Counted from the first letter of the stretch, positions 8,401 to 63,293 are shown. The stretch: DNA of 64,000 nt from an uncultured Bacilli bacterium (GCA_934096175.1 CAKOLG010000001.1:117736-181735); one strand, 5' to 3'. The notes: a model not told the origin generated them from the sequence alone. Made by a program: numbers and translations.

Positions 8401-8431
8401 ATTACAAAAATATTAATAAAATGTCAACATA

Positions 8432-8726: not shown

Positions 8727-8738
8727 TATTATCAACAT

Positions 8739-18023: not shown

Positions 18024-18048
18024 GCCACTGATAAAGTGGCTTTTTCTG
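18024..18048 (+). terminator. hairpin + T-run after rpmH (partial terminator/attenuator before rnpA)
   Basis: GCCACTgataaAGTGGC stem followed by TTTTTCTG. Confidence 0.5.
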
Positions 18049-18061
18049 TAATAAGGGTGAA

Positions 18062-18385
18062 ATGATGAAAAGAGCAGAAACAATTAAATCAAAAGTAGAT
18101 TTTAATAGAATAATAAAAAATGGTCAATATTTTAAAAATGAATATTATGTTATATATAAGGAAAAAAATGAAAATAATGAAGAATTGTATGGCATAGCAA
18201 TCAGCAAAAAGGTAGGAAAAGCTTTTTTGAGAAATAAACTAAAACGCCAAACTAGAGCAATTATAGATAAAAACAGAAAAACATTTAAAAAAGGTTACAA
18301 TTATATTATAATGATAAGGAAGAACTGCGCTAATGCAAATTATAATCAATTAGATTTTGCATTAAGTAGTTTAATAGAAAAATAG
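18062..18385 (+). CDS. rnpA: ribonuclease P protein component
   Basis: Basic ~107-aa protein following rpmH. It contains an RNR-like motif (KLKRQTRAI). Confidence 0.85.
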   Translation: MMKRAETIKSKVDFNRIIKNGQYFKNEYYVIYKEKNENNEELYGIAISKKVGKAFLRNKLKRQTRAIIDKNRKTFKKGYNYIIMIRKNCANANYNQLDFALSSLIEK

Positions 18386-18393
18386 GTGAAAAA

Positions 18394-19332
18394 GTGAAGA
18401 AAAAAATAAAAATAGTACTTGTAGCAATATTATTAATTTTATGTACAGGTTGTACTAAAACGTTAAAAGATGGAAAAACGAGTGTAACCAACGAAAAAAC
18501 TGGACAAACTTTAACATCAAATATATTATGTCAACCAACAGATGCTGACTTATATGAAAAATATCAAGAATATGATGAAAGTTTGCAAGTAAGTTTAGAA
18601 GAACTCCCAACATGTGAATCATTTACTCCAAGAAAATTAAAATATAAAAGCTTATGGGAATCGATTTTTATAAAACCATTGGCATGGCTAATTTTAAAAT
18701 TAGGATATTTGATAAAAAATATGGGTGTATCAGTAATGATAATAGGATTATTGATTAGAATAATAATTTTACCAATTCAGATAAAATCAGTTATTCAATC
18801 AGATAATATGAAAAAAGCCCAACCAGAAATAGCCAAAATAGAAAAGAAATATAAAAATAGAACAGATAATGAATCATTAATGGCGAAAAGTCAAGAAACA
18901 ATGATGGTATATAAAAAATATAAAATAAACCCTATTAGCGGATGTTTAATGGCGTTTATTCAATTGCCTTTGTTCTTTGCTTTCCTAGAAGCAATTAACA
19001 GAGTACCAGCAATATTCGAAGGAACATTCCTAGGAATGAATTTAGGAATGACTCCAGTGACAGGAATTTCTCAACACAAATACATTTATATAATTTTGAT
19101 AATCTTGATAATATTAACGACATATTTATCATTCAAAAACTCTATGAAAAACCAAGAACAAAGTTCCGAAATGGGCGAACAAATGAAAATGATGTTTATT
19201 TTTATGATAGTAATGGTATCTGTAGCGTCTTTGAGTTTGCCTACAGCAATCGCTTTATACTGGATTGTTACTAATGGTTTTGCGGTAATTCAAAATTTAA
19301 TCATAAAAAAAGTAATTGAAAAGAGGAAGTAA
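18394..19332 (+). CDS. yidC: membrane protein insertase YidC/SpoIIIJ (lipoprotein-type)
   Basis: Lipobox LILCTGC, multiple TM helices and conserved position after rnpA. GTG start. Confidence 0.85.
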   Translation: MKKKIKIVLVAILLILCTGCTKTLKDGKTSVTNEKTGQTLTSNILCQPTDADLYEKYQEYDESLQVSLEELPTCESFTPRKLKYKSLWESIFIKPLAWLILKLGYLIKNMGVSVMIIGLLIRIIILPIQIKSVIQSDNMKKAQPEIAKIEKKYKNRTDNESLMAKSQETMMVYKKYKINPISGCLMAFIQLPLFFAFLEAINRVPAIFEGTFLGMNLGMTPVTGISQHKYIYIILIILIILTTYLSFKNSMKNQEQSSEMGEQMKMMFIFMIVMVSVASLSLPTAIALYWIVTNGFAVIQNLIIKKVIEKRK

Positions 19333-43622: not shown

Positions 43623-44936
43623 ATGGGAAAAGTAAATGTAACAAAAAGAGGGAATCTATATCAATATAGATTTGAAATAGCTCCACAAGGGGGAGTTAGA
43701 AAATTTATTAACAAATCAGGTTTCAAGACAAAACAGGATGCTTATGTTGCTGGGATGAAAGCATTTAATGAATATATGAATACAGGTAAAAAATTTTCTC
43801 CTAATACATGTTCATATTCAGATTTTTTAGATTATTGGATGGCTAATTATTGTCAAATTAATCTAAGATATAATACGATAGAGGCATATAAAAGCATTAT
43901 TAAAAATCATGTTAAACCCAAATTAGGATTTTATAGGCTATCGCAAATAGATACAGCTACATTAAATGATTTTCTTACAGATGTGTTTTTGAATAAAGGA
44001 GTGTCAAAAAACTTTTTAAAAAGTATAATGAAAGTTTTAAAATCTTCATTTGCTTATGCTGAAGATGGTGTTGGATTCATTAAGCATAATCCAGCGTTGA
44101 AAATAAGATTACCAAGATATGATGGTCACGATGAAGATCCAGCTCATATTTTTACACCAGAAGAAATAGAAATGATTTTTAATAGATTTAAAAATAGTCA
44201 TTGTATATATTATGCTTTTTTAACAGCTTATTATACTGGACTGAGAGTTTCAGAAGTATTTGGACTGACATGGGAAGATATTGACTTGAAAAATAAGAAA
44301 TTAACTGTAAATAAAAATATTGTTGAAAAAAATCAAGTAGGTGGAACAAAGCACAGACTTATCAAAGGTCAAAGAACTACTGTTTGGTATTTTGGACCAT
44401 GTAAAACAAAAGCTAGCTATAGAACAATTGATATTGGAGATACATTAGTAGCAGCCTTAAAAGAATTTAAAGAAGAGCAAGAAATATATAAAGAACAATA
44501 TGGGGATTCATATATCAAACATTATGCAAAAGAAGTTTTAAATCAATATACAAATAAACCAGAAACTAAAATAGTTGATTGCAGTGCAGAAATTGATGTT
44601 GCTTTACCTGAAGTACATTTGGTATTTATAAAAAATAATGGGGCATTTGAAGGAAATAATACTTGCAAATATCCATTTAAAGTAATTCACTATGAGTTAG
44701 GAATACCTTGCAGATTTCACGATTTTAGAGATACACACGCAACAAGATTAATTGAAGCAGGAGCAGATATAAAAGCCGTTTCAAAAAGATTAGGACATAG
44801 TACAATTGAAACAACTTATAATATTTATGTAAGAGTTACAATTCAAATGGAAGAAGAAGTAGTTAGTAAATTTGAGGATTATGCAGACTCTTTAGAAATT
44901 ACTATTTCAAGAAAACCTACGGAATCAATTTCGTGA
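43623..44936 (+). CDS. int: tyrosine-type site-specific recombinase/integrase
   Basis: Catalytic domain with R...HDFRDTHATRLIEAGADIKAVSKRLGHSTIETTYNIYVRV (R-H-R-Y residues). N-terminal arm-binding-like domain. First gene of the accessory region. Confidence 0.85.
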   Translation: MGKVNVTKRGNLYQYRFEIAPQGGVRKFINKSGFKTKQDAYVAGMKAFNEYMNTGKKFSPNTCSYSDFLDYWMANYCQINLRYNTIEAYKSIIKNHVKPKLGFYRLSQIDTATLNDFLTDVFLNKGVSKNFLKSIMKVLKSSFAYAEDGVGFIKHNPALKIRLPRYDGHDEDPAHIFTPEEIEMIFNRFKNSHCIYYAFLTAYYTGLRVSEVFGLTWEDIDLKNKKLTVNKNIVEKNQVGGTKHRLIKGQRTTVWYFGPCKTKASYRTIDIGDTLVAALKEFKEEQEIYKEQYGDSYIKHYAKEVLNQYTNKPETKIVDCSAEIDVALPEVHLVFIKNNGAFEGNNTCKYPFKVIHYELGIPCRFHDFRDTHATRLIEAGADIKAVSKRLGHSTIETTYNIYVRVTIQMEEEVVSKFEDYADSLEITISRKPTESIS

Positions 44937-47445: not shown

Positions 47446-47709
47446 ATGAAGTTTTCAAGTGAAAATAGTAAAATCCCTGATTGGATATTGCATCATTTAA
47501 GAAAATATGGCAATTGTTGTTGTGGCAGAGATATAGTCAAGAAAATCGGTAGAGAAAAAATTATAGAAGTTTTGAAACAAGAAGGGTATCCATGTATTCT
47601 TAAAATAATATATGAAAATAAATATAGATATAAGCGAAGAGTAAAATACCCATTAGATGCTTATTATATTTTGGAGATAGAATGTTTGGTAAAAAGTTAT
47701 TATATATGA
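47446..47709 (+). CDS. hypothetical small Cys-rich protein upstream of and overlapping mazF-like gene (possible non-canonical antitoxin)
   Basis: 87 aa. Its 3' end overlaps the toxin start by 4 nt. It contains CCCGRD and is neither a RHH nor an AbrB fold by eye. Confidence 0.35.
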   Translation: MKFSSENSKIPDWILHHLRKYGNCCCGRDIVKKIGREKIIEVLKQEGYPCILKIIYENKYRYKRRVKYPLDAYYILEIECLVKSYYI

Positions 47710-48029
47710 AAAACTTTAAAAAAGGAGATATATTTTTAGCTGAATTAAATGATTCCTACAATCATGTTCAAAACGGAATAAGACCTTGTTTAATTGTTCA
47801 AAACAATCAGGGTAATACTTTTTCGCCAACACTAATTGTTGTACCGTTAACAACAAAAATTAAAAAGACTAATATGCCTGTACATGTTGTGATAACTCCA
47901 TATCAAATGGTTTTGTGTGAATGTATTTTAACTATTTCAAAGAAGCAAATAATTTCTTACATTAAAACATTGGATGAAAAAACTATGAAAAAAGTAGATG
48001 AAGCTTTATCCGTATCATTAGAGATTTAA
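47706..48029 (+). CDS. mazF: MazF/PemK/EndoA-family endoribonuclease toxin
   Basis: KGDIFLAELNDS...GIRPCLIVQNNQGNTFSPTLIVVPLTT...MPVHVVI...MKKVDEALSVSLEI matches B. subtilis EndoA (RPVLVIQNDIGNRFSPTAIV...LPTHVEI...MDKVDEALQISLAL). Confidence 0.75.
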   Translation: MKNFKKGDIFLAELNDSYNHVQNGIRPCLIVQNNQGNTFSPTLIVVPLTTKIKKTNMPVHVVITPYQMVLCECILTISKKQIISYIKTLDEKTMKKVDEALSVSLEI

Positions 48030-48078: not shown

Positions 48079-48636
48079 TTGTTTAGTAGTAGTTCAGGGA
48101 AGTATTGGTGTAATGAAGGTAATAATAAAAGAATGCGTAATTATCATAAGTTATCATTTATTTTAAAAGTAATAGAAAATGTTTTACTATTATCATTTAT
48201 TCTATATTGTTTATGTTTATCTACAAATACTATATTTTATCTATTTGATAGATTAAAGTATTGCAGCGAGGGAATAGCTTTGATGAACATAGATACTTTT
48301 AAAAAGTTTGTCTATGATACTTATATTATAACTTTTATTATGTCGTTGTTTGTAGTTCTATATGTTAGTAGAAAAAGGAAATACTCTTTAAAAAAGATTG
48401 TTTTAATAATGATTAAAGGATTATTATTTTTACCAATCAGCTCACTATTAACTTATAATTTTGTGATGTTAGGCAGTTTAATGAGAAGTTTCTATTTAGC
48501 AGTAATTATTGCAGTATTAGTATTTGCTATTGATTTTTTAATAAAAAGAATTGATAGTTTATATGATTTGGCAGTAGGTAGTACAGATGTTAATAAGAAT
48601 AGAAAAGGAGAAAGCAAAGTATGCAAGAAAAAGTAA
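48079..48636 (+). CDS. hypothetical multi-TM membrane protein
   Basis: Four hydrophobic segments. Start uncertain. Confidence 0.4.
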   Translation: MFSSSSGKYWCNEGNNKRMRNYHKLSFILKVIENVLLLSFILYCLCLSTNTIFYLFDRLKYCSEGIALMNIDTFKKFVYDTYIITFIMSLFVVLYVSRKRKYSLKKIVLIMIKGLLFLPISSLLTYNFVMLGSLMRSFYLAVIIAVLVFAIDFLIKRIDSLYDLAVGSTDVNKNRKGESKVCKKK

Positions 48637-48638
48637 AT

Positions 48639-48878
48639 ATGAAAGGTAATGTTAAGTGGTTTAGTAGTGAGAAAGGATATGGATTTCTCTCATGTAGTGA
48701 AATAGAAAATGATATATATGTACATTTTTCAGATATACAAATGAAAGGATTTAAAACTTTGGATGAGAATGATTCAGTAATTTTTGATTATGACGAAGAA
48801 AAGCAAAAAGCAGTAAATGTTCGCAAAATAACTGAAGAAGAATCCAATGCAGAAGAAGATAATACGGATTCTGAATAA
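48639..48878 (+). CDS. cold-shock domain protein with acidic C-terminal tail
   Basis: MKGNVKWFSSEKGYGFLS...VHFSDI has CSD RNP1/RNP2-like motifs. Confidence 0.7.
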   Translation: MKGNVKWFSSEKGYGFLSCSEIENDIYVHFSDIQMKGFKTLDENDSVIFDYDEEKQKAVNVRKITEEESNAEEDNTDSE

Positions 48879-49339
48879 TGATTAATATTTTTGATAAAGA
48901 AATTATATCAAAAATAGATATGGATAAAACAGTTATAAAAGGAAAGAAAATTTGTGAATTATATCAACCTTTAGTTGAAAAAAGGTTAAGACAACTAAAT
49001 ACTAAAGCTTTTAATTCAGCAAGTATAGTTGTATTCTCTGGAGCTTCCACGGGTTCAACTTCATCTGATAGATTGTTAAAAAGTTTATCTTGGAATGAGG
49101 ATCAGATAGCAAATTATATAAGAAGCATTTTTAGAATTCAAAACGAAGACAGAACAATTAGAGAGTTTTTGAGAATGAAATGTTTATATGGCTATACGGA
49201 TAGAGAAATTTCTGATAAACTTGAAATATCAGAAAGAACACTTAGAAGATATAAAAACAGAGCATATTTCTATTTAGCTGTTTATTCAAATCAAGTGGAA
49301 TTTATTTATGAAAGGACTTATCATTTCTACTGGGATTAA
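48878..49339 (+). CDS. ArpU-family / sigma-70 region-4-like transcriptional regulator
   Basis: C-terminal YTDREISDKLEISERTLRRYKNRA HTH is typical of phage late-gene activators (ArpU/RinA-like). Confidence 0.5.
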   Translation: MINIFDKEIISKIDMDKTVIKGKKICELYQPLVEKRLRQLNTKAFNSASIVVFSGASTGSTSSDRLLKSLSWNEDQIANYIRSIFRIQNEDRTIREFLRMKCLYGYTDREISDKLEISERTLRRYKNRAYFYLAVYSNQVEFIYERTYHFYWD

Positions 49340-50600: not shown

Positions 50601-51671
50601 TTAATTTGTATATAATTTACTTAATATTTTTGTATTTTTAATTTTATAGATCAGGTACAAAGTAATAAATAATATTAATATACATATTGCAATAGATATA
50701 AAATAACTATAGTATATAAAGAAAATTAGATTAACTCCCCATATTAAATTAGCCAATTTAAATAAAATGATAGTTACTATATTATCTATTATAAAAATGG
50801 TATAAGTAAGATAAGTAACAGCTAAAAATACATTCCAAATTATTGACAGATTTGTATAACCAGATAATTTTAGTATAATTATTATTAATATTTTATCATT
50901 AATTAAATCATTTATAAATATGAATAAATTGATTATGAAAAGAAAAATAATTATAAAAATAAATGGTGTTATTATAGATAACAGGCTATTATATTCCTTT
51001 AACTCAGTTTGATAACTATTATCAAAAAGAGTAGCATTGATATTATGGCTTTTAAATATATTTATTAAATCATCAACTTGTTTTTGTTCGCTTACTTTTA
51101 TTAGAAATTCATTTTCACTATTTTGAATGGTTCTAATTATATTATCTGAAATATAAATTTTATTTTGAAGATTAGAATCTCTCTCTTTATAAAAGCCAAC
51201 AATTTTACAAGTTATTTTCTTTTCTTCTATTGATAGAACAATATTAGAATTTAAAATTTCTTTACTTAAATTTTTATATAAAGATTCAGGTATAATAATT
51301 TCATTATTCTTGTTATTAAATTCTTTTCCATTTTGTATACTGATTTCCTCAGTTGGCAAAATCGGAGTGAGCATTATACTTCCTAATTTTTCGTTATATA
51401 TGTTAATGCTTCCTATATAATAGTAAACTTTTTTTATGCCCTTATTTTTTAATATCTCATAAAATTGATCTTCATTTTCTTTGGTACTAAATGATGTATA
51501 AACTATTCTATTTTCAACTCGATTTTGGAGTTTAGGAATCAAATTCTTTGATATTTGAGCATAGGATTGAATAATTACTATTATAGATAAGAACAAACCT
51601 GATAATATAATATATGAAATAATTTGTCTTTTACTTAATTTTATGAATTCTTTTAATAATAGTGAATTCAT
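50601..51671 (-). CDS. ABC transporter permease, FtsX-like
   Basis: N-terminal TM, an extracytoplasmic domain and three C-terminal TM helices. Downstream of the ATPase in the same operon. Confidence 0.6.
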   Translation of the reverse strand: MNSLLLKEFIKLSKRQIISYIILSGLFLSIIVIIQSYAQISKNLIPKLQNRVENRIVYTSFSTKENEDQFYEILKNKGIKKVYYYIGSINIYNEKLGSIMLTPILPTEEISIQNGKEFNNKNNEIIIPESLYKNLSKEILNSNIVLSIEEKKITCKIVGFYKERDSNLQNKIYISDNIIRTIQNSENEFLIKVSEQKQVDDLINIFKSHNINATLFDNSYQTELKEYNSLLSIITPFIFIIIFLFIINLFIFINDLINDKILIIIILKLSGYTNLSIIWNVFLAVTYLTYTIFIIDNIVTIILFKLANLIWGVNLIFFIYYSYFISIAICILILFITLYLIYKIKNTKILSKLYTN

Positions 51672-52889
51672 TTAATTTTTTAGTTCTTCCATAATATTAT
51701 TTTTTTTAAGCTTATTATTAAATATCAGTGATAACAAGACATTTATGATAATGCAGAATGAAATTCCTAGTATTATATTTAATTTTGAAATTGTTAATTT
51801 TAATCCATATAGCATTTCTTCGTTATTCAAATAACAGTTTTGAAAAACAAAAATTAAGAAGAGAGTTATAATTAGTGTTAGAAACAAAGTTACTAATATA
51901 CATAAAAATGATTCAAGGAATTGTAATTTTATAATATCTACTCGATTATACCCAAGTGTTTTTAATATTGCGTATTTTTTATTTCGCTTATATTGATTTT
52001 TTATTGATATTAAGATGATAACTATGATTGAAATAATCCCCACTAGTAAACCTATCGTTGTAATTAAATTCAAAATTTTATTCCCGATTGTGGTATCAAT
52101 TTTTACAACGGGATCTCCATTTGTATAAAAATGATTTTTTTCAAACCTTTTTAAAGTTTCATGAATATCATCTGTGCTTTTAAGTCTAACTACTAGAGGA
52201 TAAATTATTCCTTCTTCTTCTTTAAATGCTTCTGGCTGATAATACAAATTTAAATTTGTTACAATATCTGAATTTGTATAACAAAAATTTTCTTTTCCTT
52301 GTCTCATAGAGGAATCATAAGTTCCAATTAATCTAAAATTTTCTGTTTTAGTATCATCATCAATAAATTTTAAAGAAAATTGCTTTCCTAAAAGATTATT
52401 TAAATTTATTTCTTTTTTTTCTATTTTGTTTTCTTTTTTATATTCATAGAATATATTTTCAGGACATACCATAACTTTATCACTGGAATTATAATTATCA
52501 ATATTTTCCCCATTAGATATTGATATAGTATCTTTTGGTACTCCAAAAAGAAATAAATTGATTTCAGTATCATGATTAAGTCCCTCAAACATTCTCATAT
52601 TTATTATGTAGGAAGTATAAGGAGATATAGATTCAATCGTATTGTATGATTGCAATTCTGCTAATGCTTCTTTTTCTGTTTTCTCATCAGGATCATAATA
52701 TACAAAAAATGTACGATAATCCACCATCTTTTTAACGCTTTGATTCCAATAGTTATTTAAACTGTTGGAAAAAACTAAGCAAAATATTGTGATTGAAACA
52801 GCTATAGAAATAAAAATAATATTAAAATAATTTGCTTTATTTTTGTAAAATTCTTTAATCTCTATTTTTAACATATCAATTAATTTCAT
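51672..52889 (-). CDS. ABC transporter permease, FtsX-like
   Basis: Same architecture as the previous permease. Its stop is adjacent to the next gene's start (ATGA overlap with the ATPase). Confidence 0.6.
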   Translation of the reverse strand: MKLIDMLKIEIKEFYKNKANYFNIIFISIAVSITIFCLVFSNSLNNYWNQSVKKMVDYRTFFVYYDPDEKTEKEALAELQSYNTIESISPYTSYIINMRMFEGLNHDTEINLFLFGVPKDTISISNGENIDNYNSSDKVMVCPENIFYEYKKENKIEKKEINLNNLLGKQFSLKFIDDDTKTENFRLIGTYDSSMRQGKENFCYTNSDIVTNLNLYYQPEAFKEEEGIIYPLVVRLKSTDDIHETLKRFEKNHFYTNGDPVVKIDTTIGNKILNLITTIGLLVGIISIIVIILISIKNQYKRNKKYAILKTLGYNRVDIIKLQFLESFLCILVTLFLTLIITLFLIFVFQNCYLNNEEMLYGLKLTISKLNIILGISFCIIINVLLSLIFNNKLKKNNIMEELKN

Positions 52890-53556
52890 CTATAATCTCC
52901 GTCCTTCCATTTTTTAGGTAAATAATTTCATCAGCATAATCTTTAATGATGTCATCATGACAAATAACGATCACACATTTATCTTGATTTGAGAGTTTTT
53001 TTAATATACTTAAAATTTTAATTGTGTTTTCTTTATCTAAAGAAGCTGTGGGCTCGTCAGCTAATATAATCTCTGGATTATTGCATAGTGCACGAGCAAT
53101 TGCAACTCTTTGTTGTTCTCCACCCGAAAGTTGATTTGGGTAATGCTTATTCCTGTTTTCTATTCCTAATGAATTCAATAAGTTATTGACTCTTTCAACT
53201 TTTTCTTTTTTTGTTAAATTTCTATTAGTATAAAGTGGTAAAATTACATTTTCTGTGACATTCATTGTTGGAATCAAATTAAAAGATTGAAATATATATG
53301 CTAATTTCGTTTTTCTAAGATTAGCTATATTTTTTTCTGATAATTTTGATGTATTATGTCCGTCTATTTTTAATGTTCCGCTTGTTGGTTCTATAAGAAG
53401 CCCAATTATTTGCATTAATGTAGATTTTCCACTTCCAGATTCACCCATAATTCCATACAATTTTCCTTCTTCAAACTTAATATTAATATCATCTAAAGCG
53501 TTTATGCATTTATTTTTAAATGAATATTTTTTTTGTACATTAATTAACTCTATCAC
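52876..53556 (-). CDS. ABC transporter ATP-binding protein (MacB/LolD/antimicrobial-peptide exporter type)
   Basis: Walker A GESGSGKST, signature LSGGEQQRVAIARAL and Walker B ILADEPT. Confidence 0.85.
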   Translation of the reverse strand: MIELINVQKKYSFKNKCINALDDINIKFEEGKLYGIMGESGSGKSTLMQIIGLLIEPTSGTLKIDGHNTSKLSEKNIANLRKTKLAYIFQSFNLIPTMNVTENVILPLYTNRNLTKKEKVERVNNLLNSLGIENRNKHYPNQLSGGEQQRVAIARALCNNPEIILADEPTASLDKENTIKILSILKKLSNQDKCVIVICHDDIIKDYADEIIYLKNGRTEIIDEIN

Positions 53557-53578
53557 TATTTACCTTCTTTCTTTTTAC

Positions 53579-53992
53579 TTAGTTTTGAGTCATAATTACA
53601 CTATTTGATTTAATTCCACAAAATTGTCTTCCACCTGTATAATTTGTAGAGAAACCATATGCATATCGTCCATTTTTAAATTTTCCCATATTAGCTCTAA
53701 CGCATCGGTATAATTCTGTACTCATCATTTTACCAGATACTTGAGTGGTTGGACTGTAGTGTAATGTAACCCATAAAAGTTTTTCTCTATTAGATGTGCA
53801 ATCTGTATGAGCGTCCATAGAAATATCTATGATAAAATTTTTTGTGTCAAACCATCTATAGGAACCGATATGATTTGAATTAGCTGGCATATTTAATGTT
53901 GATTTATATTCAGCAGCAGAAACTTTTGTTGCCCCAAAAAGAGATAAAACAGCTATTCCAAAAACAAATAACGGCATTAATAATTTTTTCAT
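53579..53992 (-). CDS. secreted ~110-aa protein with 4 Cys, first gene of ABC exporter operon (bacteriocin-like candidate)
   Basis: Sec signal peptide MKKLLMPLFVFGIAVLSLFGATKVSA/AE. The mature domain is Cys-containing and beta-rich. The operon structure matches lactococcin-972-type loci. Confidence 0.45.
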   Translation of the reverse strand: MKKLLMPLFVFGIAVLSLFGATKVSAAEYKSTLNMPANSNHIGSYRWFDTKNFIIDISMDAHTDCTSNREKLLWVTLHYSPTTQVSGKMMSTELYRCVRANMGKFKNGRYAYGFSTNYTGGRQFCGIKSNSVIMTQN

Positions 53993-54774: not shown

Positions 54775-54830
54775 ATAGTTTATTTTAATTTATTTATGTA
54801 TTCGGATGTAGAAATGGAGGAATGTTAATT

Positions 54831-55307
54831 ATGAAAAAAGTAGTATTTATAATTTTGTGTATGGCAGTTTTTATGCCGTTTGCAGTTGAAGCTAAGACTT
54901 GTGAGTATGGGATGCCATCACCACCAATATACTATAATGGAAATTGGGCTTATGGACAAGTAATAAATTTTAAGACGTCAGCATCATCATGTCTAGCTGA
55001 TAATATGTATGTTTATTTTAGTAATGGTAATTATTTATCCACTTTTAATTTTACCATAGAGGCTTATTTAATGGAAAAAGATAAAGATCCTAATCCAGAT
55101 GATAAAGCTAAACTATATTTTGGTTACAATTCAGGTTATAGTTTAATGAACTGGACTTTACAACAAAAATTTGATGGTAATTTAGATAGTGCTGGAGATC
55201 AAACTTGTGAGTTGTATATGAAATTTAGATTAAAAGAGCCGTTAGCACATAATAATTTTGAATACCTTGACAGCGATATGTTTAGATATACAATATGCAT
55301 GGATTAA
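54831..55307 (+). CDS. secreted Cys-containing protein, paralog A of a novel family
   Basis: Signal peptide MKKVVFIILCMAVFMPFAVEA. It shares KTCEYG / TSASSC / VYFSNG / YLME / GDQTCELYM blocks with the ORF at 63514. Confidence 0.6.
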   Translation: MKKVVFIILCMAVFMPFAVEAKTCEYGMPSPPIYYNGNWAYGQVINFKTSASSCLADNMYVYFSNGNYLSTFNFTIEAYLMEKDKDPNPDDKAKLYFGYNSGYSLMNWTLQQKFDGNLDSAGDQTCELYMKFRLKEPLAHNNFEYLDSDMFRYTICMD

Positions 55308-55892: not shown

Positions 55893-55965
55893 TGAATACG
55901 GTGTATTTTCGGTGTTAATTATATATAGACCTTGGTTGGTTTTTTATAGTTAACACTTTTTTATT
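55893..55965 (+). repeat. conserved inverted-repeat/terminator-like element, copy 1 (TACGGTGTATTTTCGGTGTTAATTA...AGTTAACAC-TTTTTT)
   Basis: The arms GGTGTTAAT / (A)GTTAACAC, with conserved upstream TACGGTnnATTT and a downstream T-run, recur at 57866-57927. Confidence 0.55.
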
Positions 55966-56169
55966 ACCTAATATTTATTTTATATGTCCGGACTATAAAT
56001 AAAATATGGTATTTATATCTATTGTGTTCAATTGTCAATCATTTTATTTGATATTATGATTGAAACGGACTTGAATACGGTATTTTAAATCTTTCTATAT
56101 ATTAGATAAAAAATTTAATATTTAAGCAATTTTTTAATATTCTAACAAAAGCAGCAACAGGAGATCCAT

Positions 56170-56385
56170 ATGTATACAATGTACGAACCTACAGGGAATA
56201 TAATAGGTTATATTCAACCTCATGATTTCTATGTTAGATATCTGGTTAGTAGCCCTAGTATGGATAATGTTCATAGAGTTGTGTTTAATGATGGTAAAGA
56301 TGTTAAAATAGGTTATATAAGAGAACAGTATGTTTTACCTAGTATGACTTTAAATCCTACTGATGATGAAGCAGTAAAAGCATAA
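56170..56385 (+). CDS. hypothetical small protein
   Basis: 71-aa ORF downstream of element copy 1. No signal peptide. Confidence 0.35.
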   Translation: MYTMYEPTGNIIGYIQPHDFYVRYLVSSPSMDNVHRVVFNDGKDVKIGYIREQYVLPSMTLNPTDDEAVKA

Positions 56386-56388
56386 ATA

Positions 56389-56724
56389 TTGGTAGGTTAT
56401 GAACCATTCACTTGTGTAGAATATGATCAAGCTTCTGATGAATATATACTGCATAAATGGAAAGATACACCATCAAGAGAAATCTATATTAATAAACTAG
56501 TCCCTTATTTTAATGCCCAATGGTCTTATGTAGGGATGCTTAATAAAGGTGATTATATAAAAATAAATAGAGGTAATTTTATTAATCCAGGGTACACAAG
56601 ACCATGGACAAATCGTATAGATGGAATTAAGAAAAAAGGTAGTATTTCATTTACTAGTTTTTCTGGTTATGCAATTATTGGAATTGAGTACGCTAGTCAA
56701 GGATATGAAAGAGCTTGGTATTAG
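56389..56724 (+). CDS. hypothetical protein
   Basis: 111-aa ORF, 3 nt after the previous gene. Aromatic-rich, with no signal peptide. Confidence 0.4.
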   Translation: MVGYEPFTCVEYDQASDEYILHKWKDTPSREIYINKLVPYFNAQWSYVGMLNKGDYIKINRGNFINPGYTRPWTNRIDGIKKKGSISFTSFSGYAIIGIEYASQGYERAWY

Positions 56725-56785: not shown

Positions 56786-57007
56786 GCTGAAAATATAATT
56801 ATACTTTTACTTTTGATATTATGTGTATGTGGATGTGAAAATAACAATCAATATACAGATTTTAAACATTATGATTTAAGGAATTATGATATTACTAATA
56901 AATATTCCTATGTAGATGATGATTATATATATTATAATGGAAGTACTAGTATTTCTAGTTCAATTGAAGTTGTCAAATGTTCTAGAAATAGTTATAAATG
57001 TCAATAA
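56786..57007 (+). pseudogene. small lipoprotein-like ORF lacking an AUG/GUG start (remnant or non-canonical ATA/ATT/TTG initiation)
   Basis: The in-frame sequence AENIIILLLLILCVCGCENNNQ looks like a signal peptide plus lipobox, but no Met lies between the upstream stop (56783-56785) and the lipobox. A GGTGA RBS sits 13 nt upstream of ATA 56795. Confidence 0.25.
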
Positions 57008-57090: not shown

Positions 57091-57849
57091 ATGGTGATTA
57101 AAATTAAACTTGTAACTAAAATATTTAAAAGAAATGATTGGTATGTAACTTCACCTTTTGGAAGTAGAAATCCAATTAAAACTAAAAAAGGTATAACCAC
57201 CAGCTTTCATAATGGATGCGATTATGGAACTAATGGAGAAAAGTGGGGACAATATGCTTTAGAAAATGGCAAAATTTTATCTTGTGGAATCGCTTCTGAT
57301 GGAGCTAAATATATATGGGTAAATTATCCAAGAATCAATAAAAAAATTTTGCACTACCATTTAGATAGTATTTGTGTAAAAACGGGGCAAGAAGTTCATG
57401 AGGGATTATTACTTGGCTATACAGGTTCAACTGGTATGGCTACAGGAATTCATTTACATTTAGGAATGAAAAATAGTAATGGTGGAGACTATGAAGATCC
57501 ACATAATTATGATTACCAGTTAAATAACATTAATCATTCTGAGACATCTAAAATGGATTTAATAAAAATTGCTTATGAAGTAATTGCAGGGAAATATGGT
57601 AATGGAAAGACTAGAATTGATAAACTTACTAATATGGGATATAATGCAAGTGATGTTCAAAAGATAGTAAATGAAATAAAAAATAAAGAGCTAAAACGGA
57701 CAAATTTTTACATAGTAAAAAAAGATGATACTCTAATAAAAATAGCTAAAAAATTTGGAACAACATGGGAAAAATTATATGAATTAAATAGAGACATTAT
57801 AGGTAATGATCCTGATTTAATTAAAATAGGTCAAATATTGAAATACTAG
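57091..57849 (+). CDS. M23 (LytM) peptidase with C-terminal LysM domain, no signal peptide (endolysin-like)
   Basis: HNGCDYG...GYTGSTGMATGIHLHLGM (HxxxD/HxH zinc site) and LysM YIVKKDDTLIKIAKKFGTTWEKLYELN. The N-terminus is not a signal peptide. Confidence 0.7.
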   Translation: MVIKIKLVTKIFKRNDWYVTSPFGSRNPIKTKKGITTSFHNGCDYGTNGEKWGQYALENGKILSCGIASDGAKYIWVNYPRINKKILHYHLDSICVKTGQEVHEGLLLGYTGSTGMATGIHLHLGMKNSNGGDYEDPHNYDYQLNNINHSETSKMDLIKIAYEVIAGKYGNGKTRIDKLTNMGYNASDVQKIVNEIKNKELKRTNFYIVKKDDTLIKIAKKFGTTWEKLYELNRDIIGNDPDLIKIGQILKY

Positions 57850-57865
57850 TAAAAAAAATTTATAA

Positions 57866-57927
57866 TTACGGTAATTTATTCGGTGTTAATTAGTATATAA
57901 TTTTTTATATTGATTAACACCTTTTTT
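57866..57927 (+). repeat. conserved inverted-repeat/terminator-like element, copy 2 (TACGGTAATTTATTCGGTGTTAATTAGTATATA...TTGATTAACACC-TTTTTT)
   Basis: The 9-bp arms GGTGTTAAT / ATTAACACC with a T6 tail. It sits 55 bp upstream of the holin gene. Confidence 0.55.
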
Positions 57928-57982
57928 ATATTTGTTAAAGAGTAGATGTTTTAAGTCAATTTTATAAAGAGAGGGGAAGAAA

Positions 57983-58417
57983 ATGAAACAAGTTCTTGAT
58001 AAAATAATTAGTTTTTTGTTATATTTTTTGCTTTTTCTATTTGGAAGTTTTGATTTTATGTTAAAAACTTTATTGTCTTTAATGTTTATAGATTATATAA
58101 CAGGTGTAAGTAGAGCATTTATTACAAAAAAGGTTAATAGCAGTATAGGAGGTAAAGGAATTATAAAAAAAGCAGTATACTTATGTGTTGTTGCAGTAGC
58201 AGTAATATTAGACAATTTATTGGAAGTAAACGGAGGTTTAAGAGCTTTAATTATATATTCATTTATTTTTAACGAAATGTTATCAATTTTAGAAAATAGT
58301 AGTGCTATGGGAATCAAAGTTCCTAATATTTTATATAAATCACTTGAAAAATTAAATAAAGATCAAAATGAAAATGATAAAGAAATAGTAAAAAGTGAAG
58401 AATCAAAGCATAAATAA
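57983..58417 (+). CDS. TcdE/UviB-family holin (toxin-secretion/phage-lysis holin, Phage_holin_4_1-like)
   Basis: Three TM helices, MFIDYITGV and the central TKKVNSSIGGKGIIKKAVY. Compare C. difficile TcdE SRKFNSSFGIDGGIRKVAM. Charged C-terminal tail. Confidence 0.7.
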   Translation: MKQVLDKIISFLLYFLLFLFGSFDFMLKTLLSLMFIDYITGVSRAFITKKVNSSIGGKGIIKKAVYLCVVAVAVILDNLLEVNGGLRALIIYSFIFNEMLSILENSSAMGIKVPNILYKSLEKLNKDQNENDKEIVKSEESKHK

Positions 58418-58833
58418 TGTTGCTAATACTTTAGCAGTGTATAAAAAAGTCGAATTTTATTGTATAATATCTATGATAGCAAGGCAAAAATGCCAAGTAT
58501 TTATATTAAGAAATGTGATGGTGAAATAATAATAAAAAGAAACTAGTTAAGTAGTAAGAAGTAAAAAGTAGTATAATACACTTTCTATTCTTACTGTAGA
58601 TACTAGTTTATATATGCAAAAAAATTGTGTAGTATTTATTTTTTGCTTTATATGAATTGCTTTTATGGAGCGATTATTATGGAACTAGAAAAGTATTATA
58701 CATATTTTTTAGTAAGAAAAGATAGTATATTAAATCATAAAAAGACTATATTCTTTGCTCTAAAGGCTAATAAGAAATATAGTCTTTTTCAATTTATAAA
58801 AATACTTTTTCTTAGGGCAAGAAGTCCTCCCGT

Positions 58834-58869
58834 TCCTATCAATTTAATAAAAAATTTAAATTGATAGGA
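58834..58869 (+). promoter_or_regulatory. RBS-occluding hairpin TCCTATCAATTTAA-taaaaaa-TTAAATTGATAGGA upstream of sigma-like regulator gene
   Basis: Perfect 14-bp inverted repeat. The 3' arm includes GATAGGAGG, part of the SD sequence for the ATG at 58880. Confidence 0.5.
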
Positions 58870-58879
58870 GGAAGAAATT

Positions 58880-59356
58880 ATGGGTAAGTTCCCAAAAAGA
58901 AGAAAAAGTAAGGATAATCCGTATACACTTGGATTTGATGAAATAAAAAAGACTTATACTATTTCATTTAAAGATGTGAATAACATTATTCAAGTGATTG
59001 AAATAAATGAATTGTTATATAAAGAGTTCAATAAGTTTGAATTAGAAGATTTATCTGAAATGAATGAATATGATAATCATATTGAGCACTCAGAACTTTA
59101 TGAAGAAACTTTATATAAAAGATCTTTTAATAAAGATATATCAATAGAAGACAATATTGAAACTAAATTAATGGTAGAACTATTAAACATTTTTATAGAA
59201 GAATTACCAACTATACAAAAAAATAGATTAAAAAAGTATTATATAGAACACAAAACATATGAAAAAATAGCAATAGAAGAAGGATGCACAAAAAGAGCAG
59301 TAAAATTTAGTATAGATATTGCAATTCAAAAATTATCAAAAAAATTTAAAAATTAG
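58880..59356 (+). CDS. sigma-70 region-4-like HTH regulator (possible TcdR/UviA- or RinA-like activator)
   Basis: C-terminal LPTIQKNRLKKYYIEHKTYEKIAIEEGCTKRAVKFSIDIAIQKL resembles ECF/sigma region 4. A basic N-terminus. 158 aa. Confidence 0.5.
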   Translation: MGKFPKRRKSKDNPYTLGFDEIKKTYTISFKDVNNIIQVIEINELLYKEFNKFELEDLSEMNEYDNHIEHSELYEETLYKRSFNKDISIEDNIETKLMVELLNIFIEELPTIQKNRLKKYYIEHKTYEKIAIEEGCTKRAVKFSIDIAIQKLSKKFKN

Positions 59357-59477
59357 ACTACACAAAACATATTTAAGTTAGGAAACAAGTGAAAGGGATA
59401 TAATACTCTTTCACTTGCTATCCAAAAATTTTATAAGCTAATTTTAAAAGATTTAGTGTTTAATAGTCAAAATCATA

Positions 59478-59663
59478 ATGAAAAAATTTACAGTAGAAAT
59501 AAATCAACTAAAATCACTTTCTTTTGAAGTAAATGCAAAAAACAAAAAAAGTGCAAGACAAATGATTACCGATTTTATCAATAAAGTAGATTTAAACAAT
59601 TTGAATTTAAATTGCTTAAAAAAAGAAAATGTTAAAGTGGTTGTAAATAGGTTAAGAAAATAA
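59478..59663 (+). CDS. hypothetical small basic protein
   Basis: 61-aa ORF with a GGA-less weak RBS. Low confidence. Confidence 0.3.
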   Translation: MKKFTVEINQLKSLSFEVNAKNKKSARQMITDFINKVDLNNLNLNCLKKENVKVVVNRLRK

Positions 59664-59681
59664 AAGAACGGAGATGAAAAA

Positions 59682-60017
59682 ATGGCATATGTAAAAAGAG
59701 TACCACCAATTAAGTTAATTCTTACAAAGAAAGAATATAACACTCTTATAGGTATTTTAACAAAAAATGTGGATGAAAATAATGATGCAACAGCTAGAGA
59801 ATTATCAATTAATACTAAAGAAAAATTATTAAAATATAGTATACCACATGAATTAAATGAGAACGATGTAGAGATTGATGTAAGATTATATTTAAATGAG
59901 GCAGCAGATATTATAACTGAGTTATTATTATATAATGTAAAAAGAATTAACGAGATAAATTATTATGAAGTTTTGATAAAAGTTAGAGAATCATTTGTAA
60001 ATCATACTGACGATTAA
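59682..60017 (+). CDS. hypothetical protein
   Basis: 111-aa ORF after GGAGATGAAAAAATGG-type RBS (AACGGAGATG). Confidence 0.4.
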   Translation: MAYVKRVPPIKLILTKKEYNTLIGILTKNVDENNDATARELSINTKEKLLKYSIPHELNENDVEIDVRLYLNEAADIITELLLYNVKRINEINYYEVLIKVRESFVNHTDD

Positions 60018-60116
60018 ATTAGTATTAAATCTTTTAAAAATGTAATTAAAAATTTGGAAAGCTTAGATGTACTAAAAATTTGCATTAAAAATTTAATATT
60101 TAAGGAGATGAAAAAA

Positions 60117-62540
60117 ATGGCAAATAATGAAGTAGTAGGAGATCCATATGTATTTTATACACAAAAATGGTTAAATGATACTTATGGAAATGACAGTAGA
60201 TTTAATACTGTTACAGAAAATGGTAAAACAGGATGGGCTACCATTTATGCTTTAACAAGAGCATTACAAATTGAATTAGGAATTCAATCAACAGCTGATA
60301 ATTTTGGAAATGGAACACAAAAAGCATTTAAAACTCAATATCCTAATGGTGTACAGCAACAATCATCAGATGATAAAACAAAGAAGAACATTTATGGAAT
60401 CATCCAAGGAGCACTATTATGCAAAGGATATGCAATAGGTGCTAACACACCTACCTGTAATTTTTACGGAGGAACAGGTGGCGCAATAAAGAAATTAAAA
60501 GCAGATGCAGGATTAACAGATACAAGTTCGACAGTAACATTGAATATAATGAAAGCATTATTATCAATGGATTATTTTTATTCTTATGATACATCAACAA
60601 GAACTCAAAATATTATTAGTATGCAAAGATATCTAAATAGAAATTATGAAGCATATATTGGAATTAGACCTTGTGATGGAGTATATTCTCGTAGAACAAG
60701 TCAAGCATTGATATATGCAATTCAGGCAGAAGAGTGTATGCCTACTTCAGTAGCTAATGGTAACTGTGGACCATCTACAAAGCGTTGTCTACCAACATTA
60801 TCAGTAACTGGATCATCATCAGGAACTAGTTATAAGGGACAAGCATATTCAACTGCTAGTTTAAATAAATTTAAAACTTTAGCAAATATAGCATTATATT
60901 TTAATGGATTTGGTTCAGGAGAATTAACATCTAATTTAGACGAAAATACTATAACAAGTTTTCAAACTAAGTACTCTATTTTAGCGACTGGGAAAATAGA
61001 TTATACAACATGGTTATCTCTATTAATTAGCTGTGGAGATACAGATAGAAGTGCTAGTGCATGTGATTGTGCTACTATTTTAACACCAGCAAAAGCAAAA
61101 ACTTTGTATGATAATGGTTATCTTCGAGTTGGAAGATACTTATCTGGATATATTGCAAGTGGAGCAAGTAAAGCATTAACAAAAAAAGAATTGCAAATTG
61201 CTGCTGACGCAGGATTATATATTTTCCCAATTCATCAATCAAGTGCTAACAAGGTTTCATATTTTACAACTGCAAATGCAGTAAAAGATGTAGACAGTGC
61301 TTTTGAACATGCAAATGCACTAGGTATGCCTAGTGATACTAGTATTTATTTTGCAGTCGATTGTGATCCTTTAGATACAGAAATAACCTCTAATATTATT
61401 CCATATTTTACAACAATAAATAATATAATGAAAAGTAAGTATAATAATAAATACCCTGTTAGTATATATGGAACAAGAAATGTTTGTACGAGAGTTAGTA
61501 ATAAAGGCTTAGCAAAATACAGTTTTGTTAGTGATATGTCAACAGGATTTAGTGGAAATTTAGGATTTCCTATTCCAGATAATTGGGCATTTGACCAATT
61601 TGCAACCGTTACTGTTGGATCTGGAGATGGTAAGATTGAAATTGATAAAGATGCAATGTCTGGTAGGGATCTTGGATTAATAGGTGATTTATATTTAAAG
61701 GATTATGGGAAGGTATATTATAATTTAGTTGATATGTATAATTTAGCATTAGATTATACTAATAACAATGAAGAAAAAAGTAATTTATTAGTTTTACAAT
61801 ATCTCAGAAAGGGACGCTATGGTGATACATCTATTTTTTGTGGTGATTCATTATCGGGAGATGCCTCAATTATTAAGTGGGAAATTGTAGCTGGTACTAT
61901 AGACAAAGGATATTGTAATTTAGTAGACAGCAAATTATATAATTTGAATTTTGATTTTGTGGATTCATCTGTAAATCCTACTACATCACATGATTTACCA
62001 CACTTGGCAGCTACTCTAAATTCGTTGCTATACCAAATTGGAAATGATGATTTAAGAGGTTTCGATGAATTAGTTGATTGTTACTCTGGATGGGCAGGAG
62101 ATACAATTTCGTATGCAGATTCAATTCAAAAAGCCGTGAAAGATGGATTAACTACTGATTATGTTAAATGGGCGAAAGATAATATTTGTACCCCAAACGA
62201 AGCACATTTTAACCTTCAAGATTATATTGATGATATTGATGCATATAATTTATACCATATGATTAAATTTAAAGGGTATACTCTGCCAGAAGCGTTTTAC
62301 TTTTATTATGTTTTATCATCATTAGAAACTCATAAATATGAGTATGAGAAAAGAGCAAGCAGATTTTTAAATTATATGTCAACATCTCATTTCATTGATC
62401 TTTGTGAGTTAATAAATTCTGATGAAACTCCTATAAAACAGTTAAAGAGAACATTAAGTAAAGCTGAACAAAAATATATTGATGCAGCAATAGATGCATT
62501 TAAATCATTTATATTCAAGGAATATGTAGAAGGAAGATAA
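60117..62540 (+). CDS. large modular cell-wall hydrolase-like protein: 3x peptidoglycan-binding (PG_binding_1-like) repeats + DUF1906/GH25-like TIM-barrel + ~290-aa uncharacterised C-terminal domain, no signal peptide
   Basis: PG-binding repeats (GWATIYALTRALQIELGI; IIQGALLCKGYAIG; SMQRYLNRNYEAYIGIRPCDGVYSRRTSQALIYAIQ). DUF1906-like block LRVGRYLSGY...ELQIAADAGLYIFPIHQ...IYFAVDCDP...VSIYGTRNVC. ATG 60117 sits 9 nt after AGGAG. The N-terminus MANNEVVGDPY is not a signal peptide. Confidence 0.65.
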   Translation: MANNEVVGDPYVFYTQKWLNDTYGNDSRFNTVTENGKTGWATIYALTRALQIELGIQSTADNFGNGTQKAFKTQYPNGVQQQSSDDKTKKNIYGIIQGALLCKGYAIGANTPTCNFYGGTGGAIKKLKADAGLTDTSSTVTLNIMKALLSMDYFYSYDTSTRTQNIISMQRYLNRNYEAYIGIRPCDGVYSRRTSQALIYAIQAEECMPTSVANGNCGPSTKRCLPTLSVTGSSSGTSYKGQAYSTASLNKFKTLANIALYFNGFGSGELTSNLDENTITSFQTKYSILATGKIDYTTWLSLLISCGDTDRSASACDCATILTPAKAKTLYDNGYLRVGRYLSGYIASGASKALTKKELQIAADAGLYIFPIHQSSANKVSYFTTANAVKDVDSAFEHANALGMPSDTSIYFAVDCDPLDTEITSNIIPYFTTINNIMKSKYNNKYPVSIYGTRNVCTRVSNKGLAKYSFVSDMSTGFSGNLGFPIPDNWAFDQFATVTVGSGDGKIEIDKDAMSGRDLGLIGDLYLKDYGKVYYNLVDMYNLALDYTNNNEEKSNLLVLQYLRKGRYGDTSIFCGDSLSGDASIIKWEIVAGTIDKGYCNLVDSKLYNLNFDFVDSSVNPTTSHDLPHLAATLNSLLYQIGNDDLRGFDELVDCYSGWAGDTISYADSIQKAVKDGLTTDYVKWAKDNICTPNEAHFNLQDYIDDIDAYNLYHMIKFKGYTLPEAFYFYYVLSSLETHKYEYEKRASRFLNYMSTSHFIDLCELINSDETPIKQLKRTLSKAEQKYIDAAIDAFKSFIFKEYVEGR

Positions 62541-62618
62541 AATATAACTAAGGATAGTTAATTGATTAAATTAATCAATTAACTATTTTTTATGGTATAA
62601 TATTAGTGGTGAGCAATT

Positions 62619-63293
62619 ATGTTAAACTTTTCAAAAAAATATATTGCTGTTATTATATTGAGTATAATTATTTTTCTTACATTATATTTTTGTTGGATAT
62701 TTTTGTTAAAAAAAGAATACAACTATAAAAGTGGGGAAATTAGAATTTATCAATATAATGATAAAATAAAAGTATCTGATTTAGATTCTCTCTTTTTGGA
62801 TTCTTTAAATGTAAATAATAATTATTTGTCTTTTTATGATGATGCGATTATTCAAATAAATAAAAATGACCTTCGTAAGCGTGCCATTGGAGAAGTATCA
62901 GTATTTGCTAAATATGATTCTATAGAAAATTTAGTTCTATTTTTAAAGGAAAATGGAGTAGAAATTCAATCTAATCTAATATTAGAAAATCGAAGAATAA
63001 TTATATATAGCAATGGAAAAACAGTGTGTATTTTATTTTTTGAATCTGATAATAAAGTTAGATTAAATTTTAGGACAGAATTACCATATAAAATATCCAA
63101 TATGTACACAAGTGATGATGAATTTGAAAATTATTTTTTAAAAATAAATGCAAAAACTCACTTATCAATAAAAGAACAATTAAAATATAATTTTATAAAG
63201 ATAGCCATTGTAATAGTTTGCTTTAATTTAATTTGTTTGGTATTTCTTACATTAAAAGAATTAATAATAATAAAAAAGTGTAAAAAAAAGTAA
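62619..63293 (+). CDS. two-TM membrane protein (candidate immunity/accessory protein)
   Basis: TM helices near both termini (IAVIILSIIIFLTLYFCWIFLL; IAIVIVCFNLICLVFLTL). Immediately downstream of the large hydrolase. Confidence 0.4.
   Translation: MLNFSKKYIAVIILSIIIFLTLYFCWIFLLKKEYNYKSGEIRIYQYNDKIKVSDLDSLFLDSLNVNNNYLSFYDDAIIQINKNDLRKRAIGEVSVFAKYDSIENLVLFLKENGVEIQSNLILENRRIIIYSNGKTVCILFFESDNKVRLNFRTELPYKISNMYTSDDEFENYFLKINAKTHLSIKEQLKYNFIKIAIVIVCFNLICLVFLTLKELIIIKKCKKK

Follow-up and report, generated by a model that had tools for sequence, protein, structure and literature searches.

A probable Bac41-like, holin-associated bacteriocin locus with a TelC-type effector domain on an integrase island at the 3′ end of secA in a low-GC gut bacterium

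Gene content of the module

We analysed a 64,000-nt stretch of DNA from an uncultured Bacilli bacterium (GCA_934096175.1, CAKOLG010000001.1:117736–181735), hereafter the window, in which positions 57,091–63,293 hold the five genes of a holin-centred module, all on the plus strand; coordinates refer to the whole window and are counted from its first letter. An earlier note on this DNA had described five open reading frames (ORFs) here, all of which were recovered at the same positions, and had read them as a regulator, a holin and a cargo bacteriolysin with an immunity gene, analogous to the toxin and bacteriocin export systems of clostridia. Our analysis indicates that the module is probably a holin-associated bacteriocin (bacteriolysin) locus resembling Bac41 of Enterococcus faecalis and situated, in this low-GC gut bacterium, on an integrase island that adjoins the 3′ end of secA.

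The holin gene (57983–58417) encodes a protein of 144 amino acids (aa) that, as the note had claimed, belongs to the TcdE family by profile search (Phage_holin_4_1, Pfam E = 3.8e-35; TIGR01593, 'toxin secretion/phage lysis holin', E = 8.5e-31). The label 'TcdE/UviB type' holds for TcdE but not for UviB, which is a 64-aa peptide of a separate family, BhlA (PMC9527704), and to which the window holin showed no similarity (tblastn against rotated pIP404, no match at E ≤ 1). The gene upstream of it (57091–57849) codes for an M23 endopeptidase with CW_7 and LysM regions that also matches the PHROG endolysin and metallo-endopeptidase families. Pfam found both the M23 and the LysM regions that had been reported before, as well as the CW_7 repeat that had been overlooked. 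The M23 motifs are intact in the sequence (HxxxD as FHNGCD and HxH as IHLHLG), and the protein has no N-terminal hydrophobic segment and hence no signal peptide; the same is true of the large protein encoded further downstream, just as the note had stated for both hydrolases.

The holin gene is followed by that of a 158-aa, presumably positive, regulator (58880–59356) with a weak match to sigma-70 region 4, corresponding to a C-terminal region-4 helix–turn–helix (HTH). In the structural model, a three-stranded beta-sheet (residues 15–42) and a long helix precede a confident four-helix domain (89–157); its 770 homologues are nearly all exactly 158 aa long. The previously proposed region-4 fold was thus upheld, whereas the comparison with sigma factors of the TcdR/UviA type was not: hhalign to UviA gave 4%, tblastn found no match to UviA or to the Clostridium baratii sigma factor, and region 2 is missing. 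A relationship to BacL2, the Bac41 regulator, was likewise rejected (hhalign 0.4%, no match to the NCBIfam BacL2 family and no BLAST match). Despite an hhalign value of 74% to a neighbouring extracytoplasmic function (ECF) sigma factor, which had pointed to a complete sigma factor, we do not call the protein a sigma factor, because the model has a beta-sheet N-terminus and the match is confined to region 4.

The 807-aa effector

The large ORF (60117–62540) encodes 807 aa rather than the 828 aa originally assumed, since its ATG at 60117 is preceded by AAGGAG and agrees with the N-termini of the homologues; a length of 828 aa would require a TTG at 60054. Peptidoglycan-binding repeats (60117–61100) are followed by an Rv2525c/GH25-like TIM barrel (61101–61655) and a C-terminal domain (61677–62537). 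The barrel, reported previously as DUF1906, was confirmed by Pfam (Rv2525c_GlyHyd-like, E = 8.6e-46), whereas the three repeats of the note are weak: PG_binding_1 scores 25.6 bits over the whole protein (cutoff 23) and no single repeat is significant. The protein matches phrog_15213 over its full length (E = 8.5e-176). It is homologous to BacA of Bac41 (NZ_CP124940), with 43.5% identity over 526 aa (BLASTP, E = 1e-115), the C-terminal regions not being homologous. The best genome match (93%) comes from a gut metagenome-assembled genome (MAG) labelled 'uncultured Mollicutes', and other close relatives are found in 'Bacilli' MAGs. The host is accordingly placed among uncultured low-GC Bacillota, and membership in Clostridium is not demonstrable. 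Homology to the clostridial bacteriocin BCN5 was tested and rejected, as tblastn against pIP404, rotated to restore bcn, gave no match at E ≤ 1.

The C-terminal domain of about 290 aa, which the note had left unassigned, turned out to be of the TelC type (Pfam PF27189, 'YkzU'). Residues 521–807 were modelled confidently as all-helical (pLDDT 91, pTM 0.90), and a TelC fold was recognized in them. A domain-only profile (A5), built from 29 diverse relatives drawn from 1.8 billion representatives, retrieved the TelC structure 5UKH_A from the PDB with E = 1.3e-11, the next match being at 0.11; a full-length family profile did not reach TelC in the PDB, so that only the domain-only, more diverse profile did. 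In the alignment to TelC, DF-H-x-AATLN is matched with DFTHQSITMATHLN, GWAGD with GWEGD, and D-x3-D-x-D-A-x-N (DDllaDiDAvnI) with DDYKADLDSVNI. The corresponding positions of the effector are His629 (62001–62003), GWAGD (658–662) and the Asp-rich, putatively Ca-binding motif D702-Y-I-D-D706-I-D708-A-Y-N (62220–62249), of which H629, D702, D706, D708 and GWAGD are invariant or nearly so in the family. The Lipocone survey gives as diagnostics of the TelC family an Asp at +6 from the first, active-site Asp and a conserved C-terminal Arg (PMC12419801); the effector has both (D708, at +6 from D702, and R746). Judged by its sequence, the C-terminus of the effector is a TelC homologue, and it would be expected to hydrolyse lipid II.

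TelC, a phosphatase that requires calcium, cleaves lipid II at the undecaprenyl phosphoester; its toxicity is confined to the outside of the membrane, and TipC neutralizes it (PMC5555719). Purified TelC added externally is not toxic, and TipC is anchored by its N-terminus and faces the inner wall zone (PMC6193138). Given that external TelC is harmless, fusion to a wall-binding module, together with an M23 partner, makes sense as a solution to the problem of delivery. The same TelC-type domain also caps ricin-lectin, Big_2 or bare Rv2525c N-termini, and on such varied N-termini it behaves as a toxin tip.

Comparison with known systems

Among known systems, the two-component bacteriolysin Bac41 of enterococci comes closest by sequence, rather than the C. 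difficile pathogenicity locus (PaLoc) or UviAB/BCN5. On its E. faecalis plasmid, the Bac41 locus encodes the peptidoglycan amidohydrolase BacL1, BacL2, a 'phage holin family protein', a 175-aa ORF, the 726-aa glycoside-hydrolase-domain protein BacA and a 180-aa protein with multiple transmembrane (TM) segments. Both BacL1 and BacA are effectors that are secreted, BacL2 regulates positively and BacI provides immunity; BacL1 acts as a D-isoGlu-L-Lys endopeptidase, an action described as 'essential but not sufficient' (bioRxiv 10.1101/2020.11.20.391417; PMC7476776; PMC13532309). Neither BacL1 nor BacA has a signal peptide.

The window module is homologous to Bac41 in its effector, over the peptidoglycan-binding and Rv2525c regions, and in its Phage_holin_4_1 holin, which is 31% identical to the one inside the Bac41 locus (E = 1.7e-8). 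In both loci the effector is joined by another peptidoglycan endopeptidase that lacks a signal peptide and bears wall-binding repeats; a small positive regulator is encoded upstream and a small membrane protein immediately after the effector, and all genes point the same way. The combination of a fusion protein with an endopeptidase partner mirrors the requirement of Bac41 for both BacL1 and BacA. The M23 protein may act as a partner enzyme of the endolysin kind, or it may be a second effector analogous to BacL1; its gene occurs together with the holin, the regulator and a BacA homologue in four other loci (L012, L016, L021 and L033). The two systems differ in the C-terminal ~290 aa, which are TelC-type here and in BacA an unrelated region with a TM tail, and in the partner, which is M23 with CW_7 and LysM here, whereas BacL1 combines amidase/NlpC-P60 and SH3 domains and shows no BLASTP similarity to it. 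Furthermore, neither the regulator nor the protein encoded after the effector is homologous to its Bac41 counterpart (BacL2 and BacI, respectively), and the module lies on a chromosomal integrase island, whereas Bac41 resides on a pheromone plasmid (pYI14-type).

TelC itself is an LXG effector of Streptococcus intermedius and its type VII secretion system (T7SS). The window effector shares with it the His, GW-GD and Asp-rich motifs, and the protein encoded downstream has a TipC-like topology, with an N-terminal TM segment and an extracytoplasmic domain (PMC6193138). There is, however, no LXG domain in the effector and no T7SS gene at the locus; the N-terminus consists instead of peptidoglycan-binding repeats and Rv2525c, and delivery would presumably be as a diffusible wall-binding protein released with the help of a holin. 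Fusions of exactly this architecture (peptidoglycan-binding domain, Rv2525c-like barrel and TelC) have already been noted in Bacillota in the Lipocone survey, whose accessible text reads such proteins as conflict systems with rapidly evolving neighbours (PMC12419801). The operon partners described there are from Actinomycetota only, namely a secreted Ig-domain protein or a 3-TM protein with a VanY peptidase. A term search of the same text found no mention of BacA/Bac41, holins or bacteriocins, and M23 partners, sigma-4 regulators and swapping of C-terminal tips within a family are not reported in it (PMC12419801).

With UviA–UviB–BCN5 and with TcdR–TcdE–TcdL–TcdA/B of the PaLoc the module shares a general plan, in which a sigma-type regulator, a holin and an endolysin or its remnant accompany a large signal-less cargo. 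The resemblance to the PaLoc extends to the TcdE family of the holin (Phage_holin_4_1/TIGR01593), but the cargo here is aimed at bacteria and not at host cells, and in contrast to both clostridial systems the regulator lacks region 2 and is not a group-5 sigma factor. The detailed UviAB/BCN5 analogy drawn in the note has to be abandoned, as the effector is not homologous to BCN5 and the holin is not BhlA/UviB-like, although a C. baratii plasmid of the pIP404 type does carry a member of the BacA family at the position of bcn, in divergent orientation to the genes for a UviA-like sigma factor and a holin-like peptide of the BhlA/UviB kind. The general proposal of a regulator, a holin and a cargo bacteriolysin with an immunity gene gains from the BacA homology, the TelC tip and the synteny described below; what it had overlooked is its closest parallel, Bac41.

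The downstream protein and the BacA family

The 224-aa protein encoded 79 bp past the effector gene (62619–63293) has two predicted TM segments (11–29 and 192–210), in agreement with the note, that enclose an extracytoplasmic domain of ~160 aa. It has no sequence similarity to TipC. Its homologues lie directly downstream of TelC-type effectors in three other loci (L016, L017 and L020), where they are 25–36% identical, as against 47–58% for the neighbouring effectors; the small size of the family (17 proteins) is consistent with fast divergence. Fast-diverging genes directly after TelC-type effectors are the pattern expected of effector–immunity pairs, and from its topology and conserved synteny the 224-aa protein is a probable immunity protein.

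BacA-family homologues number more than 2,700 in Bacillota and Actinomycetota, many of them on plasmids; tblastn located full-length or N-terminal relatives of the effector on 565 plasmids, mostly from Enterococcus and Lactiplantibacillus. A neighbourhood survey of 80 loci, in which small membrane proteins were collected within 3.5 kb (n = 115), showed that the gene directly downstream of the effector almost always encodes a small TM protein or lipoprotein whose family tracks the C-terminal type. The tips are either TelC-type or a different domain of ~180 aa ('CT2') on proteins of ~750 aa. In our reading, the family behaves as polymorphic toxins, in which a conserved N-terminal wall-targeting module is combined with swappable tips, each with its own downstream gene.

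The commonest neighbour in the survey is a bona fide ECF sigma factor (18 of the 80 loci), and the top Pfam families among the 115 small membrane proteins are holins of five unrelated families, represented by 14 proteins: seven of Phage_holin_4_1, four of holin_1 and one each of BhlA, 5_2 and 6_1. BacL2-like genes flank four loci (L062, L072, L082 and L092). A faint Sigma70_r2 match (E = 0.0019) was given by a BacL2-family relative (L010 3336–3971, BacL2, and L092 4207–4800), which hints that BacL2 may itself be a very divergent sigma-like protein. In a Clostridia MAG (L033), the M23, holin, regulator and effector genes are kept with inverted gene order and an effector identity of 40%. The Bacillus subtilis group has chromosomally encoded family members (L044, L061 and L081), and some members are located in Gardnerella and Bifidobacterium prophages, near terminase, HNH and SNF2 genes.

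The integrase island

The window (G+C content ~26%) is chromosomal. The region of the replication origin lies at ~16200–18400, where dnaA (16220–17656) and, further on, gyrB/gyrA are on the minus strand and mnmE/mnmG on the plus strand; the GC skew changes sign near 17.8 kb, between dnaA/gyrB and mnmE. Contigs identical to the window come from human-gut metagenomes.

The five genes belong to an integrase island whose insertion site is the 3′ end of secA (40889–43387). A tyrosine integrase gene on the plus strand (43623–44936; Phage_integrase E = 6e-25, phrog_1 E = 5e-73), beginning 236 bp past secA, marks the left end, and in six contigs with identical SecA the island is absent, the sequence departing from that of the window exactly at 43388, at the secA stop, and continuing into acetyltransferase genes. 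The module is thus present in some strains and missing from others, which have empty sites. The final ~20 nt of secA show synonymous differences from the island-free strains, and in one strain (L100) the integrase is broken into ORFs of 86 and 350 aa. Neither a direct repeat marking an attachment site between the secA junction and 62.5–62.6 kb nor a copy of the secA 3′ end in the 10 kb past the window was found, and the right end of the island was not located within that span. This island, like the degraded genes described below, had escaped the note.

Past the integrase lie a gene resembling replication initiators, a divergently oriented gene for a repressor-like HTH protein and genes for MazF, a cold-shock protein and an activator-like protein, and then those for a CAP-domain protein and an FtsX/ABC transporter, beyond which lies the module. 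The MazF/PemK toxin gene (47682–48029) overlaps an upstream 87-aa ORF that is its likely antitoxin (region 47446–48029); a PrlF/MazF pair also adjoins BacA-family genes on L. plantarum plasmids (L008). At 48621–49339, the cold-shock-domain gene abuts that of the 153-aa activator-like protein (sigma-r4/GerE-type HTH, phrog_248 'transcriptional activator'), forming a second regulator pair on the island. On the minus strand, 50601–53992 encodes a pair of FtsX-type permeases, an ABC ATPase and then a secreted protein of 137 aa; these genes may form a bacteriocin, immunity or export cassette of their own. Secreted Cys-containing paralogues of ~160 aa are encoded inside the island (54822–55307) and downstream of the 224-aa gene (L001, 10896–11396); members of this family occur near BacA-family genes in seven of the 80 surveyed loci.

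Genes for a phage-type integrase, a replication initiator, an activator and a repressor-like HTH protein are what one would see if the module were the lysis cassette (holin and endolysin) of a decaying prophage or satellite that no longer serves competition; the large protein would then be a wall hydrolase of phage origin. The PHROG matches of the holin and endolysin, the membership of the large protein in phrog_15213, the relatives in Gardnerella and Bifidobacterium prophages and the partial pseudogenization of the locus all fit this explanation. However, scans with PHROGs and Pfam found no capsid, tail or terminase genes among the ORFs from 43.6 to 64 kb, which include the 19 kb upstream, nor were there any phage structural genes in the 10 kb past the end of the window (sequence taken from 100%-identical contigs), where small secreted proteins and two large surface proteins are encoded. 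A megablast search of the region against phage and plasmid collections gave essentially no match. Moreover, the module has all five genes intact and is maintained across lineages despite rearranged order, its cargo is homologous to a proven bacteriocin component and a proven antibacterial toxin, its relatives are common on small plasmids, and the family has polymorphic C-terminal tips with cognate downstream genes. A prophage remnant is therefore improbable. The note, too, had stated that phage structural genes are lacking and had named their discovery beyond the window, the detection of signal peptides or the failure of the holin in profile searches as results that would speak against its proposal; the searches came out otherwise in all three respects.

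A second break point lies at 62588, at the 3′ edge of a terminator hairpin that follows the effector gene (62550–62592, plus strand; fold z-score −6.75). One contig (L002) matches the window only from 62588 on; in place of the island it carries the end of a prophage (1–9969), with a tail protein, a reverse transcriptase and a CHAP + CW_7 endolysin, and then the same 224-aa gene, which would be an orphan immunity gene there. The reverse transcriptase of this prophage is a possible part of a diversity-generating retroelement.

A degraded second effector pair and leader hairpins

Upstream of the M23 gene, the window formerly held, by sequence comparison, a second effector/lipoprotein pair that is now degraded. 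The pseudogene (56153–56724, plus strand) derives from a BacA-family effector with a CT2 tip: residues 572–752 of P0043 are 92% identical to 56179–56721 (tblastn), and the N-terminal TGDPYVYNV of the same protein is encoded at 56153–56182, just before two small ORFs at 56170–56724. About nine N-terminal codons are joined out of frame, via the 7-nt microhomology AATGTAC, to the last ~181 codons, with residues ~16–570 deleted; there is no start codon or ribosome-binding site, and an in-frame TAA is present at 56386. That TAA is missing in some strains, in which the ORF is 184 aa long. The 5′ ends of the paralogous effector genes are 73% identical (repeat D1). The CT2 domain itself has no sequence match in Pfam or the PDB.

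The pseudogene is followed by a 64-aa lipoprotein remnant (56813–57007, plus strand), identified by BLASTP to L012:12322–12858 and N-truncated, in which residues 48–147 of a ~178-aa protein are deleted and the flanks are 86–94% identical. In 10 of 11 loci a lipoprotein gene of this kind directly follows the CT2-type effector, and it presumably confers immunity to CT2. The intact 752-aa CT2 gene is found in L012 and L013, and in related genomes the full order is CT2 effector (752 aa), 178-aa lipoprotein, M23, holin, regulator, 111-aa ORF, TelC-type effector (810 aa) and 223-aa protein. The 111-aa ORF, located between the regulator and the effector in the window (59682–60017, plus strand), keeps this position in L012, L018 and L021 and has no family match in Pfam, NCBIfam or PHROGs.

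Terminator-like hairpins precede the remnant effector gene (55911–55965; fold z-score −4.35) and separate the M23 and holin genes (57882–57921; 16-bp stem and T-run, fold z-score −4.04), both on the plus strand. The two are related, with common arms GGTGTTAATTA/TTAACAC, a T-run and the exact 14-mer TTCGGTGTTAATTA, and may be conditional terminators; their surroundings (55895–55985 and 57850–57935) are also alike in the 5′ flank (ACGGT..ATTT.TTC). No Rfam family was detected in 55.5–63.4 kb, and a promoter scan returned 63 sites against 65.8 expected.

A model for the locus

Taken together, the homology of the cargo to BacA, its TelC-type tip, the recurrence of holins and sigma-type regulators near the family and the synteny of the downstream gene support the bacteriocin function. 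In the scheme that we propose, the 158-aa sigma-region-4 protein would turn the module on, and the TcdE-family holin would open the membrane for the two signal-less proteins, the M23–CW_7–LysM enzyme and the 807-aa effector. The effector is predicted to bind peptidoglycan via its N-terminal repeats and Rv2525c/GH25-like barrel, while the M23 enzyme, by cutting cross-links, would help the TelC-type domain to reach the outer face of the membrane of a rival cell; there, as its homology to TelC suggests, it would hydrolyse lipid II and stop wall synthesis. The 224-aa membrane protein would shield the producer and its kin.

Several observations weigh against this scheme. No recognizable holin was found within 3.5 kb in ~66 of the 80 surveyed loci, and many plasmid copies in L. 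plantarum and E. faecium stand alone, which shows that holins are not obligatory for the family. The regulator model has no sigma region 2, and no shared promoter motif or alternative-sigma motif could be established at the module. In the structural search, 5UKH took the top rank in Foldseek, but weakly (probability 0.85, E = 0.11, TM-score 0.37). The enzymatic activity of BacA is undefined, no peptidoglycan-degrading activity having been detected (bioRxiv 10.1101/2020.11.20.391417), and the accessible Bac41 literature makes no mention of the holin ORF. Finally, the 224-aa gene lies outside the 62588 junction and is kept where a prophage replaces the island (L002), so that it is not strictly co-inherited with the effector.

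The absence of detected peptidoglycan degradation by BacA (same preprint) would also suit a housekeeping locus for autolysis or wall remodelling, for example during sporulation or when cells separate, with the TelC-like domain serving to recycle lipid-linked precursors of the cell itself. Sporulation genes (SpoIID, SpoIIID and SpoIIR) are nearby in the host, and chromosomes of the B. subtilis group encode relatives. Such a role is nevertheless very improbable for a locus that sits on an integrase island, is missing from strains with identical secA and has fast-diverging immunity-like genes and a pseudogenized paralogue as its neighbours.

Within the Bac41-like scheme, the M23–CW_7–LysM enzyme and the holin could equally be seen as a canonical lysis pair. 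A strictly non-lytic export like that ascribed to TcdE, in which the holin moves the folded effector, and perhaps the M23 enzyme, while the producer survives, would agree with the family of the holin and with the presence of a dedicated immunity-like gene. We regard it as rather doubtful: the M23 protein is a complete, motif-intact enzyme of the endolysin type and not a remnant like TcdL, nothing in the locus offers obvious protection of the producer's wall from it, and the two terminator-like hairpins with the dedicated regulator suggest tightly gated, costly expression. Because the endolysin-type enzyme is complete and the gating appears tight, we slightly favour release by lysis, at least in part, of a subpopulation of producing cells over a strictly non-lytic route.

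Implications

More tentatively, and short of an even chance in our estimate, the BacA family as a whole may represent a general, T7SS-independent platform for diffusible polymorphic toxins, in which a wall module and an endopeptidase deliver swappable toxins, TelC included, with release through holins under the control of sigma-type activators. If true, this would account for the part that BacA plays in Bac41, which has long been undefined. A toxin that is harmless when added externally, and which has so far been known through T7SS delivery, would then have become a secreted bacteriocin, its wall-binding/GH25-like module together with an endopeptidase carrying a lipid II-degrading enzyme across the Gram-positive wall. 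The model of the locus itself, if correct, would link three so far unjoined literatures, on Bac41, on TelC and on the holin-dependent secretion of signal-less proteins; the holin ORF inside Bac41-type loci could be the export route, and the tips and their downstream genes may set the specificity of killing and immunity among gut strains. Such proteins are candidate narrow-spectrum antibacterials and probably shape the competition between strains in the human gut.

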